A stretch of 23,688 bases of DNA from Chiloscyllium plagiosum. Taxonomy: Eukaryota. The notes under the pieces were generated by a model. That model searched no databases and was not told where the DNA came from. It saw only the letters and a program-made list of their open reading frames with translations. The stretch covers positions 23,068,618 to 23,092,305 of the forward strand of contig NC_057719.1 in NCBI RefSeq assembly GCF_004010195.1. The letters are read 5' to 3'. A program made the position numbers and the translations under genes. Positions 231-23,688 of the stretch are shown in pieces (the stretch's first letter is position 1; every line of letters begins with the position of its first letter).

Positions 231-364
231 TGAATTACTTTTCCGCTTGAATACAGCTATCAATGTGAGATAATAAAGTTTTCAGAGAGATAAGGACAGA
301 AGAGAAGCTGAATAACTGTTGATGAGAGCTAATAATAGGAGAAAATGGGTAAGTTGTGTAAATG

Positions 365-600
365 TCCTTTGAGAAATGAAAGTGGGTGACCACTTTGCAG
401 AATGCCTACATTCTGTCCACAAAGATGACCCTGTGTCTGTCACTTCAATACACCACCATGTTCCCTCAATAATATTTCTGTCACAGGCCTGCTGTAATCT
501 TCCAGCGAGCTTCAGCGCAAGCTTGAAGCACAACATCTCATTTTCCATGTGGGGGACCCTGCAGCCTCAACAGACTCAACACTGAATTCATTGACTTGAG
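365..600 (+). mobile_element. Old Penelope-like element fragment, GIY-YIG endonuclease C-terminus (frameshifted)
   Basis: Translating across frameshifts gives GDHFAECLHSV...CHFNTPPCSLNNISVTGLL*...QRKLEAQHLIFH..GTLQP..LNTEF. This parallels the fragment at 15690-15910 and the typical PLE endonuclease end. Confidence 0.7.
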
Positions 601-747
601 AACCTGGTCATGTCCTTCCATGTTTATTACCCATCCCCACTCCCTGTCCAATCATCAGGTGGGATACTTTCAGCACAGCTAACCCTTTCTCACCTACTCT
701 TAGTCTGATCATCACATTATATGGGTTGCTTCCAGCAAAGCCTACTA

Positions 748-920
748 CAGAGGAACCTCAATTATCTGGCATTTGATTATCCGAATGTCGGATTGACCGG
801 CAAGATCGCAAGGTCCGGATGCTTTGCTAAACTATGTTACCTGGCATTCGATTATCCGGAATTCAATTAACTGAAAAAAATACTCCCCACCCATGTCCTT
901 TGGATAATCGAGGTTCCTCT
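748..920. mobile_element. MITE with Tc1/mariner (pogo/Tigger-like) terminal inverted repeats
   Basis: Left end TA|CAGAGGAACCTCAATTATC (748-766) is inverted relative to GATAATCGAGGTTCCTCT (903-920). An internal motif TGGCATTYGATTATCCG is repeated. The terminal G and TA are missing at the right end. Confidence 0.75.
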
Positions 921-4351: not shown

Positions 4352-4560
4352 TGGAAAAGCACAGCAGGTCAGGCAGCATCCAAGGAGCAGGAAAATTGAT
4401 GTGCCGGGCAAAAGCCCTTCATCAGGTCATTCCTGATGAATGGCTTTTGCCCGAAACATCAATTTTCCTGCTCCTCGGATGCAGCCTGACCTGCTGTACT
4501 TTTCCAGCACCACTCTAGTCCTGACTCTGATCTCCAGCATCTGCAGTCCTCACTTTCACC
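4352..4560. mobile_element. Short palindromic Penelope-like insertion with head-to-head hammerhead-like cores
   Basis: 75-bp inverted arms 4352-4426 and 4432-4506 around a 5-nt loop, then the 3' tail. TSD TTGAAAATAG(G/A)AAA at 4338-4351 and 4561-4574. Confidence 0.85.
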
Positions 4561-6487: not shown

Positions 6488-6810
6488 GGGTGACATGGTG
6501 GCTCAGTGGTTAGCACTGTGGCCTCACAGCTCCAGGGACCTGGGTTCAATTCCAGTTTCAGACAACTGTCTGTGTGGAGTTTGCACATTCTCCCTGTGTT
6601 AATGTGGGTGTCTTCCGGGTGCTCTGGTTTCCTCCCATGATCCAAAGGTGTGCAGTTTAGGTGAATTGGCCTAGTGTTCAGGAATGTGTAGGTTACTTGC
6701 ATTAGTCAGGGGTAATTGTAGAGTAATGGGTTTGGGTGGGATACTGTTCGGATGGACAGTATGGACTTGTTGGGCTGAAGGGCCTGTTTCCACACTGTAG
6801 GGATTCTAAT
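6488..6810 (+). mobile_element. tRNA-derived SINE (HE1/V-SINE-like), full length
   Basis: GGGTGACATGGTGGCTCAGTGGTTAGC (box A), GGGTTCAATTCC (box B), conserved core, and 3' tail GGGCCTGTTTCCACACTGTAGGGATTCTAAT. Confidence 0.92.
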
Positions 6811-8552: not shown

Positions 8553-8654
8553 CCCATCTGGTTCACTAATGACCTTTAGGGAATAAAGCCTGCCATCTTT
8601 TGCCTCATCTGGCTTGCATGTGACTCGAGACTCACAGGACAGTTGTTGACTCTT
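8553..8654 (+). mobile_element. Fragment of the second SINE-like family, split by the Penelope insertion
   Basis: CCCATCTGGTTCACTAATGACCTTTAGGGA..GTTGACTCTT resumes as AGCTGTCCTC at 9786-9795, after the TSD. Confidence 0.6.
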
Positions 8655-9771
8655 TCTGGATTAATGGTGCTGGAAGAGCACAGCAATTCAGGCAGCATCC
8701 GAGGAGCAGTAAAATCGACGTTTCGGGCAAAAGCCCTTCATCAGGAATAAAGGCAGAGAGCCTGAAGGGTGGAGAGATAAGCTAGGGGAGGGTGGGGATG
8801 GNNNNNNNNNNNNNNNNNNNNNNNNNNNNNNNNNNNNNNNNNNNNNNNNNNNNNNNNNNNNNNNNNNNNNNNNNNNNNNNNNNNNNNNNNNNNNNNNNNN
8901 NNNNNNNNNNNNNNNNNNNNNNNNNNNNNNNNNNNNNNNNNNNNNNNNNNNNNNNNNNNNNNNNNNNNNNNNNNNNNNNNNNNNNNNNNNNNNNNNNNNN
9001 NNNNNNNNNNNNNNNNNNNNNNNNNNNNNNNNNNNNNNNNNNNNNNNNNNNNNNNNNNNNNNNNNNNNNNNNNNNNNNNNNNNNNNNNNNNNNNNNNNNN
9101 NNNNNNNNNNNNNNNNNNNNNNNNNNNNNNNNNNNNNNNNNNNNNNNNNNNNNNNNNNNNNNNNNNNNNNNNNNNNNNNNNNNNNNNNNNNNNNNNNNNN
9201 NNNNNNNNNNNNNNNNNNNNNNNNNNNNNNNNNNNNNNNNNNNNNNNNNNNNNNNNNNNNNNNNNNNNNNNNNNNNNNNNNNNNNNNNNNNNNNNNNNNN
9301 NNNNNNNNNNNNNNNNNNNNNNNNNNNNNNNNNNNNNNNNNNNNNNNNNNNNNNNNNNNNNNNNNNNNNNNNNNNNNNNNNNNNNNNNNNNNNNNNNNNN
9401 NNNNNNNNNNNNNNNNNNNNNNNNNNNNNNNNNNNNNNNNNNNNNNNNNNNNNNNNNNNNNNNNNNNNNNNNNNNNNNNNNNNNNNNNNNNNNNNNNNNN
9501 NNNNNNNNNNNNNNNNNNNNNNNNNNNNNNNNNNNNNNNNNNNNNNNNNNNNNNNNNNNNNNNNNNNNNNNNNNNNNNNNNNNNNNNNNNNNNNNNNNNN
9601 CCTCTAGCTTATCTCTCCATGCTTCAGGCTCACTGCCTTTATTCCTGATGAAGGGCTTTTGCCCAAAACATCGATTTTGCTGCTCCTCTGATGCTGGCTG
9701 AATTGCTGTGCTCTTCCAGCACCACTAATCCAGAAACTGGTCTCCAGCATCTGCAGTCATTGTTTTTACCT
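8655..9771. mobile_element. Penelope-like insertion with inverted arms flanking an assembly gap
   Basis: The left arm 8655-8790 is the reverse complement of 9601-9736. Perfect 14-bp TSD AGTTGTTGACTCTT at 8641-8654 and 9772-9785. The interior 8802-9600 is N. Confidence 0.85.
8716..8748 (-). ncRNA. Minimal type I hammerhead ribozyme motif, intact core
   Basis: The minus strand reads CTGATGA-A-GGGC-TTTT-GCCC-GAAA-C-GTC: CUGANGA box, 4-bp stem II, GAAA box, palindromic ACGT stem III and GUC triplet. Confidence 0.7.
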
Positions 9772-11090: not shown

Positions 11091-13620
11091 GAGTCATAGA
11101 GACCTTCAGCACGGAAACAGACCTCGCGGTCCAACTAGTCCATGCTGACCAGGTATCCAAAGTTAATCTCATCCTATTTGCCAGCATTTAGTTGGTATCC
11201 CTCTAAGCCCTTCCTATTCATATACCCATCCAGATGCCTCTTAAATATTGTAATTGTACCAGCCTCTACCACTTCGCCTGGCAGCTCATTCTATACACGC
11301 ACCACCTTTTGCATGAAAAATTTGCCTGAGTTCCCTTTAAAATCTGTTCCTTCTCACCGTAAAGCTATGCCCTCTAGTTCTGAACTCCCCCACCCCAGGG
11401 AAAAGACCTTGTCTATTTACCCTATCCATGTTCCTCAGCCTCCGACGCTCCAGGGAAAACAGCCTCAGCCTATTCAGTCCCTCCCTGGAGCTCAAATCCT
11501 CCAACCCTAGCAATATCCTTGTAAATCGTTTCTGAACACTTTCATGTTTCACAACATCCTTCTGGTAGGAGGGAGACCAGAATTGCACACAATATTCCAA
11601 AAGTGGCCTAACCAATGTCCTGTACAGCCATAACATGACCTCCCAACTCCTGTACTCAATGCATTGACCAACAAAGGAAAGCACACTATTCACTTTCTTC
11701 AATATCCTATCTGCTCGTGACTCCACTTTCAAGGAACTATGAACCTGCACTCCAGGGTCTCTTTTTTTTTTTTAGCAACACACTTTACTATTATATGTAT
11801 AATTCCTCTTCTGATTTGTTATTCCAAATGCAGCACATTGATCCAAATTGAACTCCATCTGCCATTCTCAGCACATTGGCCCTTCTGCTCAAGATCCCAT
11901 TGTAATCTGAGGTAACCTTCTTCACTGTCCACTACAACTCCAATTTTAGTGTCATCTGCAAACTTACTAACTATTCCTCCTATGTTTACATCCAAATTAT
12001 TTAGATAAATGACGAAAAGCAGTGGACCCAGCACCGATCTTTGTAGCACATCACTGGTCACAGGCCTCCAGTCTGAAAAGCAACCCTCCACCATTACACT
12101 CTGTCTTCTACCTTTGAGCCAGTTCTGTATCCGAATGGTTAGTTCTCCCTACATTCCATGCGATCTAGCCATGCTAACCAGTCTACCATGAGGAACCTTG
12201 TCAAATGTCTTACAGAAGTCAATATAAATCACATCGACCACTCTGTCCTCATCAATCCTCTTCATTACTACTTCAAAAACTCAATCAAGTCTGTGAGACA
12301 TATTTTCCCATGCACAAAGCCATGTTGACTATCCATAATCAGTCTTTACTTTTCCAAATACATGTAAATCCTGTCCCTCTGGATTCATTCCAACAACTTG
12401 CCCAACACTGATGTCAGTCTCACTGGTGTATCATTCCCTAGCTTTTCCTTATCACCTTCCCTAAATAGTAGCACCCCATGTTAGCCAACCTCCAGTCTTC
12501 TGGCACCTCACTTGTGACTATCGGTGATACAACTATCTCAACAAGGGGCCCAGCAATCACTTCCATAGCTTCCCCAGAGTTCTAGGGTACACCTGATCAG
12601 GTCCTGGGATTTATCCACCTTAATGTGTTTTCAGACATCCAGCACCTCCCCTCTGTAATATGGACATTTTTCAAGATGTCACAATCTATTTCTCCACGTT
12701 CTATGTCTTCCATGTCCTTCTCCACAGTAAACACTGATGTAAATTACTCATTTACTAACACCCCATCTCCTGCGGTTCCACACAAAGGCTGCCTTGCTGA
12801 TCTTTAAGGGCCCTATTCTTTCCCGAGTTACACTTTTGTCTTTAATGTATTCATAAAATCCCTTTGGATTCTCCTTAACCCTATTTGCCAAAGTTATCTC
12901 ATGTCCCCCTTTTGCCCTCCTGGGTACCCTCTTAAATATACTCTCCTGACATATGTTTCCTTCTTTATCTTGACCAAAACCGCAATTTCTCTAACCATCT
13001 AGCATTCCCTACACTTACCAGCCTTGCCTTTCACCCTAATAAGACATCCTGTCTCTGGACTCTCATTATCTCATTTTTGAAGGCTTCCTATTTTCCAGCC
13101 ATCTGGTTATCTGTGAACCGCTGCCCCAGTCAACATTTGAAAGTTCTTGCCTAATACTGACACAATTTGCCTTGCTCCAATTTAGTACTTCAACTTTTAG
13201 ATTAGGTTAGATTCCCTACAGTGTGGAAACAGACCCTTCGGCCCAAACAATCCACACCGACACTCCGAAGAGTAACCCACCCAGACCCATTTCTCTCTGA
13301 CTAATGCACCTAACACTATGAGCAATTTAGCATGGTCAATTCACCAAACTTGCACATCTTTGGACTGTGGAAGAAAACCGGAGTACCCGGAGGAAACCCA
13401 CGCAGACAAGGGGAGAACGTACAAACCCCACACAGACTGTCGCCCAAGGCTAGAATCGAACCTGTGAGGCAGCGTGCTAACCACTGAGCCACTGTGCAGC
13501 CAAAAGGTGCAGTCTAATCTTTTCCATCACTATTTTAAAACTAACAGAATTATGGTCGCTGTCACCAAAGTCCTCCCCCACTGACACCTCAGTCACTTGC
13601 TCTGCATTATTTCTCAAGAA
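11091..13620 (-). mobile_element. CR1 (HER1-like) LINE, 5'-truncated ORF2 pseudogene with 3' end at 11091, interrupted by a SINE
   Basis: Minus-strand translations WRPVTSDVLQRSVLGPLLFVIYLNNLD..SKFADDTKIG and LYRTLVRPLLEYCVQFWSP; endonuclease end VGEDFGDSDHNSVSF at ~13535-13580; multiple frameshifts and stops. Confidence 0.93.
13201..13501 (-). mobile_element. tRNA-derived SINE (HE1/V-SINE-like) nested in CR1
   Basis: Same sequence family as 2142-2454. CR1 sequence continues on both sides. Confidence 0.92.
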
Positions 13621-14700: not shown

Positions 14701-14733
14701 ACAATTAGAAGTTGCAGCAAGAATTCACCTCCA

Positions 14734-14992
14734 GACTCATAGAATCCCTACAGTGTGAAAGCAGGCCATTTGGCTCATCGAGTCCACACTGACCCTCTGA
14801 AGCACTGCCCACCCAGACCCACCCCCCTACCCAATCCCTTTAACCCCGCATATCACATGGCTAATCAACCTAGCCTTCATATCTTTGGACTGTGGGAGGA
14901 AACTGGAGCACCAGGAGAAAACCCATGCAGACACGGGGAGAATGTGCAAATTCAACACAAACCATCGCCAATGATGGAATTGACCCCGGTGC
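14734..14992 (-). mobile_element. tRNA-derived SINE (HE1-like), 5'-truncated
   Basis: Tail GAATCCCTACAGTGTGAAAGCAGGCC and core CTTTGGACTGTGGGAGGAAACTGGAGCACC..GAGAATGTGCAAA match the other copies. Confidence 0.88.
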
Positions 14993-14994
14993 TA

Positions 14995-15680
14995 TGAGGG
15001 TTCTGAACACGCTTACAGTCGCAGCTGACAATATCAGACTTTTGATGGAGAAAAATCCAGTCCTGGCAAAGCTGAAACAGCTGGTAGTGATGGGGGAAAC
15101 TAAAGGTCCATCACAAATAGAACTGAAACATTTTTGGAGAGACCAGATCACAGTGGAGGGTGGGGGCAAGAGTGGTTATCCCAAGCACATGCCACTGCCA
15201 AATACTGGTGGCCAGGATTGGATGCAGACGTAGCTGCGTTGGTGGGGTAGTGCCCAGAGTGCCAACAAAGACAAAAATTACCACCAGCAGCTGCCCCACA
15301 CTTGTGGGAAGGGCTGGGTAAACCCTGGACTGGGTTACACGTTGACTATGTATTCCTTTAATGAACACAGTGTTCTTAGTCATTGTGAATGTTCACTCAA
15401 AGTGGTTGGATGTTCGTAGAGTTCATTCATCAAACACGTTGATAACATAGAAAGGCTGTGTGCATCTTCTGCAATACACAGGCTTAAGGAAGTATTGGGC
15501 ACAGATAACTGGTCATCATTTACCAGCAGGGAATTACAGTACTTCCTAAAATTGAATGGTAATCAAAATATACAGGCAGCTCCATGTAGTCCAAACTTTG
15601 ATGGCAGGCTTAAAGAAACAGCCTACAGCTTCACTAGATACCAAACTGTCCCAGTTCCTATTTGATTGTAGGTCACCTCC
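14995..15680 (+). mobile_element. Ty3/Gypsy LTR-retrotransposon pol remnant (integrase zinc finger and rve core)
   Basis: Translates as WWPGLDADVAALVG*CPECQQ..KPWTGLHVDY..FLVIVNVHSKWLDV..TDNWSSFTSRELQYFLKLNG, with frameshifts and deletions. Confidence 0.85.
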
Positions 15681-16003: not shown

Positions 16004-17169
16004 TCTTCCACAACTACACTGGCCCCACCCTCCACCTTTTCCTCCGCTACATCGATGACTGTATCGGCGCCACCTCGTGCTCCCACGAAGAGGTTGAACA
16101 GTTCATCCACTTCACCAACACCTTCCACCCCGACCTCAAATTCACCTAGACCGTCTCAGATTCCTCCCTCCCCTTCCTCGACCTTTCTATTTCCATCTCA
16201 GGTGACCGAATCAACACGGATATCTACTACAAACCGACCGACTCCCACAGCTACCTGGACTACACCTCCTCCCATCCTGCCCCCTGTAAAAACGCCATCC
16301 CATTCTCCCAATTCCTTCGACTCCGCCGCATCTGCTCCCAGGAGGACCAGTTCCAAAAACGCACAACCCAGATGGCCTCCTTCTTCAAGGACCGCAATTT
16401 CCCCCCCGACGTCGTCGACGATGCCCTCCACCGCATCTCTTCCACATCCCGCTCCTCCGCCCTTGANNNNNNNNNNNNNNNNNNNNNNNNNNNNNNNNNN
16501 NNNNNNNNNNNNNNNNNNNNNNNNNNNNNNNNNNNNNNNNNNNNNNNNNNNNNNNNNNNNNNNNNNNNNNNNNNNNNNNNNNNNNNNNNNNNNNNNNNNN
16601 NNNNNNNNNNNNNNNNNNNNNNNNNNNNNNNNNNNNNNNNNNNNNNNNNNNNNNNNNNNNNNNNNNNNNNNNNNNNNNNNNNNNNNNNNNNNNNNNNNNN
16701 NNNNNNNNNNNNNNNNNNNNNNNNNNNNNNNNNNNNNNNNNNNNNNNNNNNNNNNNNNNNNNNNNNNNNNNNNNNNNNNNNNNNNNNNNNNNNNNNNNNN
16801 NNNNNNNNNNNNNNNNNNNNNNNNNNNNNNNNNNNNNNNNNNNNNNNNNNNNNNNNNNNNNNNNNNNNNNNNNNNNNNNNNNNNNNTCAGTCAAATCCAT
16901 CGAACTCAGCACCGCCTTCCTAACCTGCAATCTTCTTCCCGACCTCTCCGCCCCCACTCCCGTCTGACCTATCACCCTCACCTTGACCTCTTTCCACCTA
17001 TCACATTTCCGACGCCCCTCCCCCAAGTCCCTCCTCCCTAACTTTTATCTTAGCCTGCTGGACAAACTTTCCTCATTCCTGAAGAAGGGCTTATGTCCGA
17101 AACGTCGATTCTCCTGTTCCCTGGATGCTGCCTGACCTGCTGCGCTTTTCCAGCAACACATTTTCAGCT
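16004..17169 (+). mobile_element. Young 5'-truncated Penelope-like retroelement: RT core, gap, 3' pLTR
   Basis: Frame +1 reads FLRYIDDCIG..FHPDLKFT*TVSDSSLPFLDL..YYKPTDSHSYLDYTSSHP..IPFSQFLRLRRICS, with one stop at 16147-16149. TSD CCAACCCATTATCA at 15990-16003 and 17170-17183. Confidence 0.92.
17075..17110 (+). ncRNA. Minimal hammerhead ribozyme motif in PLE pLTR
   Basis: CTGAAGA-A-GGGC-TTAT-GTCC-GAAA-C-GTC, with one G-U pair in stem II. Confidence 0.65.
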
Positions 17170-18497: not shown

Positions 18498-18854
18498 AAG
18501 GCATTTGGTGAGGTTTAGGTTCAGTTTAGACTTTATTGTCACGTGTACTCAAGTTCACTGGAGTGTTCTGTAAGGAACCACTATTGACTATAACACAATT
18601 TCATGAGTGGAAGCGTAAAGGTATAAGAGAGTAGTGTACAATATTTCCACATCCAACACCATCTTAGATACAAAGGTACAAAATATTAGGTACAAATATA
18701 AATAAATAAGTTTAAAATTCATCACTACAGTTCTTCTTAGTATAAAGCAGAAAAATAAAGAAAGAAAAGTTAAAAGTTAAATGTTACAGTCCTTTCCTAA
18801 GCCCTCAGTCTGCAGACAGTCCATGCTGGGCTTTCCCAATGAGGGCTCACTCTT

Positions 18855-19458
18855 GCTTGCACACTTCTGCCCACAGTGGGCACACTTTCACCCACACTGA
18901 GCACACTTCCACCCACACTGGCCACATTTCCACCAGCACTGGGCACACTTTCACGCATGGTGAGCACACTGCCACCCATACTGGGCATGCTCCCACCTAG
19001 TCTGAGCACGCTTCCACCCACACTCAACACACTTCCTCCAGCACTAGTCACACTCCCAACCACGCTGGTCATGCTTTCACCTATGCTGAGCACACTTTCA
19101 CCTGCGCTGGGCACATTTCCACCCACACTGGGTACAGTTCCACCTGCATGTTCCACTACCCCCAACCCCCCACCCCGACCCCACCCCCCCCACTGGTACT
19201 GGGCATGCATCCAGACACACTTAGCATGCTTTCACACATACAGACACACTGGGCACAATACCATGCTCACTGAGCACTCTTCCACCTGTGCTGGGCACAC
19301 TTCCACCCACACTGGGTAAACTTCCACCCATACTGGGCATGCTCCCACCCAGTCTGAGCACACTTACACCGACACTATGCAAACTTGCACCAGTGCTGGG
19401 CACACTTGCACCCACACTGTGCACACTTCCACCCACATTGGGCACACTCCCACCCACA
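18855..19458. repeat. 21-bp minisatellite, consensus CTGGGCACACTTCCACCCACA, in two blocks separated by a C-rich spacer
   Basis: Tandem diverged 21-mers at ~18855-19150 and ~19270-19458. They produce the 7-aa periodic ORFs (LGTLPPT / VGGSVPS). Confidence 0.92.
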
Positions 19459-19764
19459 GATCTATCAGCAGATTGTGATTGTGGGGTTGCTTGAACACAG
19501 CGAGGATGAGTTGCATATGTCTCCATCAAAGCCAGAGCAACATCTACAAATTCAAGGTGAAGTCAAAAAAGTAGATACTTCCTAATTGTTTTCCATGCTG
19601 GGCATGCCTGAAATTTAAGGTCCCCAGATGGTATTATGGGGCAGCTGCCTCCATTACCAGCAAAGAGTTAATTGTAATGGAAACCAGGTAGATTAGCAAT
19701 TCTCCAGATAAGGTAATCGACTGACTACTGGGTTCAGCAATAGGAGTGACATCTTCTGCAAAGT

Positions 19765-19808: not shown

Positions 19809-21532
19809 CATCTTCTGCAAAGTACATAGAAGAGAGAAAAGATCCTCCAGTAGAGAATTGATTTACAGAGAAACAGAATCAAGGTCCTCAAGACGAACCA
19901 ATCTTCCAAGTCAGAAAAGAACAGGATCTTGAAAAATTGTACAACCTTGATACAACCTACATTTGAGAAGTTAGACACTTAAGAGATGAGGTTGTGGTTA
20001 CTGTAAAAGTGGATACATAATGTAGTTGAATGTAGAATTGTTAATTATGGGGAAAAACGCTTGGGGAGATATCATTTCAGGGAAAAGTTCTAAAAGAGTT
20101 TAAGGTTAGAGGTGCATTAGCTTCACAAAAACATATGACGTTGCACTGTGCATCTTAAACAGAGATAGATAAACATATCTGGCATCTCATAGTTGAAATC
20201 ATGTCTTAACTTATTCCTGTTAATTGTACCTATTGCTATCATGCAATGACTTACACATTGTTATGTAAAACGAGTGCTTCTTATTGTTACATCTTTATTG
20301 AGGCCGATATTCGACAACTAATAATTAGATAAGTAATAATTTGGCATAAGAAGGATGATTGACAATAAATTAGCAAACCACAAGCCACCAGTGTTGGGTA
20401 ACCAATGCTGGCACTGATGGCATCTGAGAAGATGACACCTTCCACCTTTGACTTAACAGTAGCAGGAGGTTTTGGCCACCTATAGGAAACTAAGACAGAC
20501 CCTGTCAAACATACATGGCTTGAGTTGGAACGGGCTGCATTTAATTCAATCTAGCTCCAAAAGATGAGGATGAAAGGTAAATGGATATGAAAATGAAAAA
20601 CAAAACAGGGCAAAGACTTGGGACAGATTTGGGACAAATTAAAAATCTCTCAAGGAGCTAACATAGGCACAAAGGACCTATTTCAGCGCTGTTTGATACT
20701 ACGAATATTATCAGTCAGCCCAATCAGCACAAAGCAGCCTCATGGCTTATTGATAAAATCATAGACCAAATGGCAATGCTAGTGATTGAAGCCTCCTCCT
20801 GCCAGAACACACACACACACGCGCACATACACGCATGCACACATACACCCACACACATACAGTCCCCCACACACAAACCACATACACACGTGCATACCAG
20901 TATGCGTGTGTGTACATACACATGCACGTATACTCACATACAGGTACACACAAAAACATACACATACATATATGCACATGTACACACATACACACACGTA
21001 CACACACATACCTACACACACATGAACACGTCCACACGTACATGCACACATGTACGTACATACACAAGCACACATATACACACACATGCGCACATGTACA
21101 TTACACACATGTACACACACATACATGTACATACACACTCATACATGTACACACACATGTTCACATACACGGGACATGTACATGTGTAAATAAATACACA
21201 TGTACATATACACACATGTATGCACACACATACACGTACACATACCCATGTGTGTACACAAACACATTAATGTATATACGTACATACACATACATGTACA
21301 CACACATACACGTACACAAACAGACAAGCACATTTACAAGCACTCTCACACACACAAACATGTACACACGTACACACACACACATGCATATGTACTAACA
21401 CACATATATACACCCACATACACATGCACACTCACACATACACACACATGTCATACACAAACACTCACGTACACACATTCACATGTACACACACATACAT
21501 GTATACACACACATACATGTACACACATTCAT

Positions 21533-21570
21533 GATTCCTGAAGAAGGGCTTATGCCCGAAACGTCGATTC
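21533..21570 (+). ncRNA. Minimal hammerhead ribozyme motif, intact core
   Basis: GATTC-CTGAAGA-A-GGGC-TTAT-GCCC-GAAA-C-GTC-GATTC. Core at 21538-21544, GAAA at 21558-21561, GTC at 21563-21565. Confidence 0.7.
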
Positions 21571-21661
21571 TCCTGTTCCCTGGATGCTGCCTGACCTGCT
21601 GCGCTTTTCCAGCAACACATTTTCAGCTCTGATCTCCAGCATCTGCAGACCTCATTTTCTC
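21533..21661 (+). mobile_element. Solo Penelope pLTR 3' fragment with hammerhead core
   Basis: Nearly identical to 17075-17170 plus a 3' tail. TSD CACACATTCAT at 21522-21532 and 21662-21672. Confidence 0.85.
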
Positions 21662-22071
21662 CACACATTCATACACACACGAGCACATATATACACACAA
21701 GCACATGTACACACATGCACGCACATGTAATGCACATGTGCACACACATGTATGCACACACACCTATGCACACACATACACATACACATATTCACATGTA
21801 TACACACACGTACACATTCACACAGACAAATGTACATGTACACGATCACATACACATGTACATATGCACACACACATGTATACACACAGATGCAAACACC
21901 CACGTGTACCCACAAGTACATACATGCACACATGTACACATACGCAGACGGACATGCATATACATACACACACGTACACACAAGTACACAGAGGCACACA
22001 CATGTATACACGTACACAAACAAGTACACACATACACACACGTGCATGTACACAAACACACACACACACAC

Positions 22072-22739
22072 TGTTGGGCTTTGGCTCAATCTACCAATTT
22101 AAATTTACTTTCTTCTATGTGTGAGCCAAGTCCTGCGTGTTCTTTTAAATGAAGCAATAGGAGAAGATATTCGGTCTCACACTCTTAATTTTATTTTACA
22201 CAGTAAGTGAACAAAGCATTCAGAGCTCTGGGTCTAAACCTCTTTGTCCCTGACAAACTACAAAGTGTATCAGTTCAAAAAGTAAGACCTCGTTTTATCC
22301 CTGCCCCAGTCTTTTTTACAATAAAAAATGTCATATAAACACTGAGGTAGAATTATCTTCTGATTGGGTGTTGGTCTGACTCCATTCCCCGCCTCCTCGC
22401 ATTCCTAGCTATCTGACCCCACGTGACCTTCTTTTGTCCGCGAAATGGAGCATCACGTGACCTCCTCGACCCACTTCCGAGGCGTGAAACGGAACATCAC
22501 GTGATCGCCCGCCCTCTTCCGGGGCGCGAAACGGGACGTCACGTGACCGCCCCGCACTCTTCCGGGGCGCGAGACGTGGACGCCACGTGACCGCCCCGCA
22601 CTCTTCCGGGTGCGAGACGGGGACGTCACGTGACCATCCCCCCCTGCTTGGGTTACAGAGTCACCACAGGGTTTTGAGTGCTGAATCCATCCAGAGTCAC
22701 AGCCAGCCTTCTGTTTTTAAAGTAAGGGATATATTTACA
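22072..22739 (-). mobile_element. 3' LTR of an endogenous retrovirus (668 bp)
   Basis: The minus strand begins TGTAAATAT just after the PPT and ends CCCAACA at the microsatellite junction. CCAAT (22363-22367), GATAAAA TATA-like box (22293-22299) and AATAAA (22190-22195) occur in U3-R-U5 order. Confidence 0.85.
22415..22636. promoter_or_regulatory. U3 tandem enhancer-like repeats (~43 bp) with six CACGTG E-boxes
   Basis: CACGTG at 22420, 22454, 22498, 22540, 22584 and 22627. Most units also carry CTTCCG (ETS-like) and GCG(C/T)GA(A/G)A (E2F-like). Confidence 0.75.
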
Positions 22740-22741
22740 AG

Positions 22742-22751
22742 TCCCCCTTTT
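22742..22751 (-). other. Retroviral polypurine tract
   Basis: Minus-strand AAAAGGGGGA followed by CT and the LTR TGT, about 33 nt after the env stop. Confidence 0.85.
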
Positions 22752-22783
22752 GGTCTCATGAAAATGAGACCAACCAACCAGTT

Positions 22784-23688
22784 CTATACATCATATTCGC
22801 TCTCTGATGCATAGTCCTCCCTCCTTGCTAAAGCCATGGTTTCTGTCTCCATCTGTGACATCTGGTAAGACGGGGGAGCCTTCCCTTCAATTGCTGTAAT
22901 GATTACCCTGTTTAACAAAGATCTAATACAGGGAATATAACAACATCCGCACAACACTAACACAATAATCATACCTCCGAGGGACATAAACACAGAGGCA
23001 ATTAATCCCTTCCATTTCCCAAACCATGAATCGAACAGTCCTCCTAGAGGGTTGTAAATACCCGAGTGTTCATGCATTTCTTCAGACAAAATTCTTAGTC
23101 CTTCCAAGGCTCTGGTGACCGAACCATCAGGTGCCATATTGTTGGGGATGAACGTACAACATTGATCTCCAAACATAGAGCACACTCCCCCCTTTTCTGC
23201 TAACAACATATCTAAGGCCATTCTATTTTGAACTGTCATCAATGAGGTTGCTGCCAATTGTTCAGAAAGTCCCGCCACCGCATCTCTAGTTCTATTGGCG
23301 AGCCTAAGTACATTGTAATGTACATAATTAATTCGGTCAACGTTTTTATTCGGCGTAACTGGGAATAAAACCCCGATAATTGGGAGATTCTCAAACCCTG
23401 CTGCTATCTGGTCTGCTAATTTATATTCATCAGGTACACCACGGGGAACACCTATTGCATCTATGTAAGTGGTTGAGCCAGATGTAACATCAAACAAATC
23501 CCTACGAATTCGTGTATATGGATTTATTCCCTGTCGTCGTTCTCCGAAAAGGAATAAGGGTACCCCTAACCTAACCATTGCACAGGTTCCAGACCAATCT
23601 GGAGGTAGACTAATATGCAGTGTTCTATCTCCACACTACCAAAAAAGATCAGCTCTGGCCCAAACCATTGTGCTAGCGTTCTGCCAGC
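22784..23688 (-). pseudogene. env: Endogenous retrovirus envelope (SU C-terminus plus complete TM subunit) with an in-frame stop at 23636-23638; continues beyond the window
   Basis: Reads RADLFW*CGDRTLHISLPPDWSGTCAMVRL, then furin site RIRR (23501-23512), ISD QNRMALDMLLAEKGGVC, CX6CC (CSMFGDQCC), hydrophobic anchor LIASVFMSLGGMIIVLVLCGCC and a cytoplasmic tail. It is followed by PPT and LTR. Confidence 0.93.

Follow-up and report, generated by a model that had tools for sequence, protein, structure and literature searches.

A class I endogenous retrovirus of bamboo sharks with a gamma-type envelope that groups with envelopes of marine teleosts

The 3′ end of a class I endogenous retrovirus (ERV) with a gamma-type envelope gene (env) lies at the right-hand edge of the window, by which we mean the whole stretch of 23,688 nt of Chiloscyllium plagiosum DNA that was analyzed. 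The element belongs to a multi-copy family, and the reading that we consider probable is that it is the 3′ end of a dead class I provirus of that family, descended from a teleost-type virus that crossed between bony fish and bamboo sharks, likely from fish to shark, with repeated entry into the germ line. It is a new or at least unnamed member, whose interest resides in the cross-class link to the retroviruses of mackerel and soldierfish and not in its youth or in a lineage native to sharks. Since sharks and bony fishes split more than 400 million years ago, the high identity of the fusion domain between bamboo shark and mackerel (88%) points to a concrete jump between host classes through an entry route usable in both.

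The env 3′ end is encoded on the minus strand in a frame running from 23686 to 22784, which spans 301 codons, is interrupted by one internal stop (23638-23636), and is free of frameshifts, in agreement with the sequence-only reading, which had reported about 900 nt in frame throughout and bearing one nonsense codon. The 283 codons behind the internal stop form an open part whose occurrence by chance at the window composition is about 1e-8, and they match the Pfam family TLV_coat (PF00429) with an E value of 1.1e-7. The SU 3′ coding piece aligned without gaps with Chiloscyllium and teleost envelopes. Within TM, the RIRR cleavage site, the immunosuppressive domain (ISD), the motif CX6CC, as well as the membrane anchor were all found at the positions claimed for them on the minus strand (table 1). 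The ISD-CX6CC core matches syncytin-1 at E 3e-9, and is held in common with MLV p15E, syncytin-1/2, and filovirus GP2 at E values of 3e-9 to 1e-4. In contrast to the MLV-like gammaretroviral Env, a hydrophobic N-terminal fusion peptide is absent here: the first 11 residues after RIRR have a hydropathy score of −0.03, and the hydrophobic peak is internal, about 35-45 residues past the cleavage site, with a score of 2.14 at residue 84. The match with the Ravn/Marburg filovirus GP2 chain begins at this same internal segment. The CXXC motif of SU falls beyond the window edge and is carried by relatives of 85-94% identity (P0122, P0242, and P0243). The IDAIGVPRGVP segment had been proposed as typical of fish, epsilon-related envelopes; this proposal fails as a marker, given that 219 of 259 homologues carry GVPRGVP, among them envelopes from macaque, marsupial, bird, and frog. 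Among protein clusters, the ESM Atlas returned generic ENV clusters only.

Table 1. Features of the ERV 3′ end and its flank, in window coordinates
Feature	Position	Strand	Basis or remark
SU 3′ coding end	23513..23688	-	open at window edge; internal stop 23638-23636
SU/TM furin-type cleavage site RIRR	23512-23501	-	motif read
IDAIGVPRGVP	23464-23432	-	motif read
GVPRGVP segment and probable internal fusion peptide	23360..23464	-	hydropathy; fusion role inferred
Immunosuppressive domain (ISD)	23233-23186	-	PF00429 and syncytin matches
CX6CC of TM	23182-23156	-	motif read
Membrane anchor	23008-22940	-	19-residue hydropathy up to 2.6
Anchor, cysteine cluster, cytoplasmic tail, env stop (22786-22784)	22784..23008	-	frame and motifs
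10-bp perfect hairpin joined to PPT	22742..22774	-	stem seen in fold
Polypurine tract (PPT)	22751-22742	-	two bases, then LTR
3′ LTR, 668 bp, TGT...ACA	22072..22739	-	sequence read; similarity to L001 LTR
U3 enhancer-like array, 43 bp x 4.6, CpG-rich	22439..22635	-	tandem repeat
Core promoter: CCAAT at 22367, TATA-box position near 22320-22312	22310..22367	-	assignment inferred from position
AATAAA poly(A) signal at 22195-22190, with poly(A) sites ~22173/22170 (R/U5 border)	22170..22195	-	RNA reads
Host flank, degenerate CA-rich array abutting LTR end	20807..22071	.	sequence read

The polypurine tract followed by a complete TGT...ACA LTR, which had likewise been described from the letters of the window, was recovered as such. 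The U3 part of this LTR harbors a tandem array whose words we take to be E-box, ETS-, GC-box-, E2F-, and CRE-like motifs, and which may constitute a proliferation-type enhancer; CACGTG occurs six times in the LTR versus four times in the 20,352 nt elsewhere in the window. The number of repeats in the array differs among family copies, as contig and read joints skip 33-108 nt. The U3 had also been portrayed as still rich in CpG, which holds for the array (observed/expected ratio, o/e, of 1.37) and not for the remainder: 31 of the 37 CpG in the LTR lie inside the array, and the other LTR parts have ratios of 0.42 and 0, compared with 0.56 in env and 0.19-0.31 in the host background. CpG richness across the LTR was thus rejected as proof of youth, being confined mostly to a single array. 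No second copy of the element was found within the 23,688-nt window, Rfam gave 0 matches in the window, and, out of six flank frames submitted to Pfam, five had no match and one had a weak match below the cut-off.

Reads of the RNA run X21 provide direct evidence on the R region. From about 2% of this run, 106 family reads were aligned, and their loose poly(A) ends accumulate at 22173 (22 reads) and 22170 (14 reads), roughly 20 nt behind the AATAAA signal, which fixes the R/U5 border and reveals that LTRs of this family terminate transcripts. In the same share of the run, none of the 106 reads was at least 99% like the present copy, and the polyadenylated family reads may stem from solo LTRs. 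No loose ends were observed at the LTR 3′ end or at the PBS among the 20 of 79 loose-end rows listed, and none of the indexed runs listed as carrying the stretch is RNA.

Part of the stretch is present in 20 of the 24 listed runs, from four coded organisms, with the best run holding 53% of its words; the small-share runs X17-X20 were left out of the comparisons. In X1, 554 contigs were aligned, among which env contigs with one and three differences reached depths of 757 and 569, and variant contigs 12-27. These depths suggest some tens of near-identical copies, a rough figure given that read depth does not equal copy number. The internal stop is missing from all aligned contigs and reads over 23636 in X1, X9, and X21, as well as from most of the depth in X14. 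The Chiloscyllium RefSeq models of this env family (P0122, P0242, and P0243) include entries with several isoforms and frames of 412-570 residues, indicating that the family left long open env frames and probably also transcribed loci.

Comparison with named relatives places the env piece closest to bamboo sharks, with 97% identity (over 147 residues) and 85% to C. plagiosum proteins, 94%, 94%, and 90% to C. punctatum, and 87% to Hemiscyllium ocellatum. Next come teleosts, namely Myripristis (79%), Scomber (78%), Epinephelus (73%), and Echeneis (70%), followed by other sharks (Heterodontus, Mustelus, and a second C. punctatum family) at 52-53%. In the 163 columns of the TM ectodomain, Scomber reaches 88% and Myripristis 86%, with the other two teleosts at 81% each, as compared with 58-61% for the other sharks. 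Among the 240 matches listed, the named shark members belong to the Hemiscylliidae only, a distribution to be read with the many close proteins that bear no host name (e.g., P0135, 80%) and could come from other sharks. A search with the SU of P0243 yielded 34 matches, whose named members are restricted to hemiscylliid sharks and teleosts.

These relationships also bear on the idea of a co-opted, syncytin-like host env gene, or of teleost DNA contaminating the shark assembly, which we hold to be highly improbable. Co-option finds a hint in the RefSeq label “syncytin-B-like” given to relatives. Such labels are automatic, however, and a co-opted env would be expected as an intact frame at a single conserved locus; what was found is an SU interrupted by a stop, with PPT and LTR intact, in a multi-copy family. 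As for contamination, the best-matching sequences come from chromosome-scale records of three Chiloscyllium and Hemiscyllium species and not from teleosts.

Three trees were computed to position the env family. The quick tree has 82 rows (the window and 81 of the 240 matches listed); the careful tree, unrooted, has 31 rows, a subset of the named matches picked by hand; and the SU-only tree retains 24 of 29 rows, five without an anchor motif having been dropped, with relatives of 85-94% identity standing in for the window, which is absent there. In the careful tree, support of 98/88 unites the five hemiscylliid rows, whose sister is Scomber at the lower support of 84/80. Hemiscylliids and Scomber are joined by Myripristis, Epinephelus, and Echeneis with 99/93, then by Mola with 95/85, and then by further teleosts. 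The other sharks group with bird and primate envelopes, across a branch supported by 100/99. A single clade of all eight shark rows was rejected in this tree by the AU test (p=0.000119). One shark clade was also rejected in the SU-only tree (p=9e-39), which leaves the branching within the 11-row clade undecided, and the rejection in SU excludes that the pattern is a swap of TM only. The 82-row quick tree agrees with the careful one.

The sequence-only reading had attributed the element to a recent insertion from a chondrichthyan retroviral lineage, that is, a retrovirus native to cartilaginous fishes and inherited within sharks. The closest relatives are indeed all sharks, and the single stop, the lack of indels, and a CpG content above background would be consistent with a recent arrival. 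Against this origin, the env nests among teleost ERV envelopes and shark monophyly is rejected in TM plus SU and in SU alone. Furthermore, the 88% TM ectodomain identity to mackerel versus 58-61% to other sharks makes co-divergence since the shark/bony-fish split impossible, and the confinement of named shark members to a single family among the matches listed also argues against it, as does, for a recent insertion, the roughly 1-2% of sites at which this copy departs from its family. We therefore regard a native shark origin as quite improbable and, judging by the sequence comparisons, as largely refuted for env. The tree result concerns env alone, and it derives from a sampling in which teleost genomes are represented far more densely than sharks.

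The other sharks form a second env clade (P0092, P0096, and P0200), which groups with the pheasant and macaque envelopes in all three trees and constitutes another cross-class link, in this case between sharks and amniotes; marsupial envelopes also belong with it. Its TM ectodomain is 80-85% identical to the pheasant ERV env P0119 and 72-73% to the macaque P0118. With the bamboo-shark family, these envelopes (Heterodontus, Mustelus, and the C. punctatum P0096) share GVPRGVP, ISD, and CX6CC, whereas the TM ectodomain identity between both groups is just 58-61%. We presume this second clade to be a HERV-I-related group that probably includes the lemon-shark ERV.

Relatives lacking a host name extend the comparison beyond env. 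A metagenome scan retained four loci (L001-L004) from 44 candidates, with no usable pol in any of the four and just a weak integrase-end match on L001. In the quick tree, the env of L001 and L002 groups with Scomber. Relative to these two loci, env exhibits a pN of 0.16 against a pS of 0.79-0.81, which indicates strong purifying selection, as expected of an infectious virus. In its promoter-R-U5 part, the LTR shares 77% identity with the LTR of L001 over 291 nt (189 bits, versus 27 bits for the best of 50 shuffles), and since the host of L001 is unnamed, this LTR match alone does not demonstrate the teleost link. The 33-nt hairpin and PPT segment is identical in three of the four loci, L001 (2479-2511), L002 (2439-2471), and L004 (1686-1718), with no match in L003. 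Given this invariance, set against the saturation of synonymous env sites in the comparisons with L001 and L002, the hairpin preceding the PPT is probably a cis signal, a role that we predict from conservation. A viral contig collection contained 0 loci for env, and the hairpin-PPT pattern had 0 exact matches there. In L004, a LINE-type reverse-transcriptase frame (252-824, minus strand) adjoins the truncated env-PPT-LTR end. Regarding pol, the RNase H of the pol-bearing relative P0036 (63% env identity) comes nearest to MLV/XMRV, and MLVIN_C is matched weakly; this would fit class I, epsilon and gamma not being separated by these matches.

A different itinerary would also place shark and teleost envelopes side by side: the virus could have passed from sharks, or from an unsampled marine host, to several teleosts, or the env alone could have recombined onto a shark-type gag-pol. 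The trees are unrooted, few shark genomes are available, and Env/Pol incongruence is described as widespread in anamniote ERVs (10.1101/2021.11.23.469661, in its accessible part), all of which leaves room for such an itinerary. Nevertheless, successive branches containing only teleosts subtend the shark clade (99/93, 95/85, and 87/88), followed by the 100/99 branch to the outside group, and an exchange restricted to env is at odds with the PPT hairpin and R-U5 held in common with L001, whose env groups with Scomber, which suggests that more than env travelled together. On balance we consider this opposite or indirect route unlikely. Even so, the jump may have been limited to the envelope, recombination between env and pol being common in such ERVs.

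Turning back to the passage from teleost to shark that we favor, its steps can be outlined as follows. The parent virus would have entered cells by means of a covalently linked SU-TM gamma-type envelope, in which SU and TM would be separated by furin cleavage and held together by a disulfide link between CXXC (as known from the near relatives) and CX6CC. Its fusion peptide was probably internal, as the hydropathy profile and the start of the GP2 match suggest. Reverse transcription would have proceeded from a standard PPT, and transcription would have been governed by tandem enhancer repeats of E-box/ETS/GC/E2F-like type in U3 and terminated at the poly(A) site used in R. The env, and by way of one unnamed relative the LTR/PPT region, would belong to a retrovirus lineage of marine teleosts (Scomber, Myripristis, Epinephelus, and Echeneis), and the virus would have crossed between bony fishes and bamboo sharks, most likely into the sharks. 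Replication by infection presumably went on, so that the shark germ line was entered repeatedly and sublineages arose in Chiloscyllium and Hemiscyllium. This copy would then have decayed by about 1-2%, including the stop in SU and the change at the TATA position.

The extent of this decay was estimated in two ways. The best word share, 0.53, corresponds to a difference of about 2.0% from the family, and in X1 at least 21 of the 40 difference rows listed (with 189 more beyond them) have another letter at 75% or more of the depth, amounting to 1.3% of 1617 nt. Nineteen of these 21 differences were classed, all of them transitions, with seven representing CpG decay in this copy; the remaining two are the SU stop codon and a substitution at 22316 at the TATA-box position, both apparently private to this copy, the latter being absent from every aligned family contig and read. 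The copy is thus about 1-2% off its family and, with one stop and no frameshift, the low decay perceived in the sequence-only reading is upheld. Its age is another matter. An assumed shark rate of 2.2e-10 per site per year is given in PMC4422223 and a measured epaulette-shark rate of 7e-10 per generation in PMC10587355, both as read from the accessible parts of these sources. A divergence of 0.75-2% translates into 34-91 My at 2.2e-10 and into 7-20 My at our upper bracket of 1e-9, figures that are upper bounds because part of the divergence may already have been present in the infecting virus or may reflect a difference in species between organism A and the window. Synonymous sites against L001 and L002 are saturated, and dS yields no date. 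“Young” is consequently a relative term for this element: at shark rates, 1-2% could equal several to tens of millions of years, and low decay in a shark ERV should not be equated with a recent insertion.

A more far-reaching version of the teleost origin is possible, though we would not bet on it: the whole teleost virus (gag-pol, env, and LTR) may have crossed, radiated in bamboo sharks by reinfection into several sublineages, and be still multiplying or circulating, with the hairpin as an undescribed cis signal of this clade. The dozens of near-identical env copies, the long open Chiloscyllium env frames, and the polyadenylated transcripts would be the trace of such a virus if it were still active. 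If true, this would provide a datable jump from bony fish to shark whose descendant still lives in model sharks bred in the laboratory.

Regarding previous descriptions, fish genomes have been screened for gamma-type-Env ERVs (ERVs-GTE) in the work of Chen et al. (10.1101/2021.11.23.469661), who, in the part of that work accessible to us, report ERVs-GTE in six cartilaginous fish, three of them with more than 500 copies, together with 46 orthologous ERV groups in Chiloscyllium, named lineages (e.g., ERV-GA.a-Cpu), occasional cross-class Env sharing, and the Env/Pol incongruence cited above. Their elements are alike in the ISD, CX6CC, anchor, and lack of an MLV-like N-terminal fusion peptide, and come from a screen that covered the same host genus; the present family is probably already in their catalogue. 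Assignment to one of their lineages would call for 80% identity across more than 3 kb, and the window contains 1.6 kb of the element. A bamboo-shark clade nested among mackerel and soldierfish envelopes is not described in the accessible portion of their text, and our literature search, outside whose coverage most subscription journals fall, found no paper on this bamboo-shark/teleost env clade. The nearest known counterparts are the envelopes of Scomber scombrus (XP_062270617/XP_062294174), Myripristis murdjan (A0A667WGX6), Epinephelus fuscoguttatus, and Echeneis naucrates (A0A665TEN1), which fall in the same clade at 70-79% identity in the env piece and 81-88% in the TM ectodomain, and which have in common with the family, where the record covers it, an SU motif CVAC/CIAC. 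They reside in another host class, and the saturation of synonymous sites against the unnamed clade members L001 and L002 implies separate viruses instead of copies of a single element. By description only, and from partial sources, ZFERV, SSSV, and further fish ERVs that are epsilon-like and bear a gamma-type env (PMC4977317), as well as the elephant-shark CmiERV II/III (PMC4422223), are class I elements and likely of the same broad kind; none of the names ZFERV, SSSV, and CmiERV occurs among the 240 matches listed. The accessible part of PMC4422223 also mentions that an ERV of the lemon shark is close to a human one. Jumps between host classes are known in aggregate, and the principle is not new: the available part of Xu et al. 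(PMC6001957) reports cartilaginous-fish ERVs scattered over the tree, with ray-finned fishes as transmission hubs and frequent host switching centered on fish. What the bamboo-shark family offers is a clear-cut case, in sharks that are bred in captivity and have sequenced genomes, that could be dated through orthologous insertions.

The remainder of the window contains further repeats. A SINE-like repeat of about 260 nt is present in four diverged copies (65-79%) at 2141-2399, 6488-6810, 13201-13462, and 14733-14987. The frames at 11337-12148 (minus), 16150-16466 (plus), and 14874-15665 (plus) resemble, in our assumption, CR1-type RT, Penelope-type, and gypsy-type remnants, respectively, and gave no Pfam match at E 0.01. 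A 21-bp minisatellite in two blocks at 18839-19517 produces long pseudo-ORFs. Finally, a short repeat of about 80-140 nt, often in inverted pairs, is found at 8653-8788, 9601-9736, 4352-4506, 17075-17166, and 21531-21660; one inverted pair (93%, 136 nt) brackets the N gap at 8802-9600, and a copy also breaks the CA array beside the LTR.
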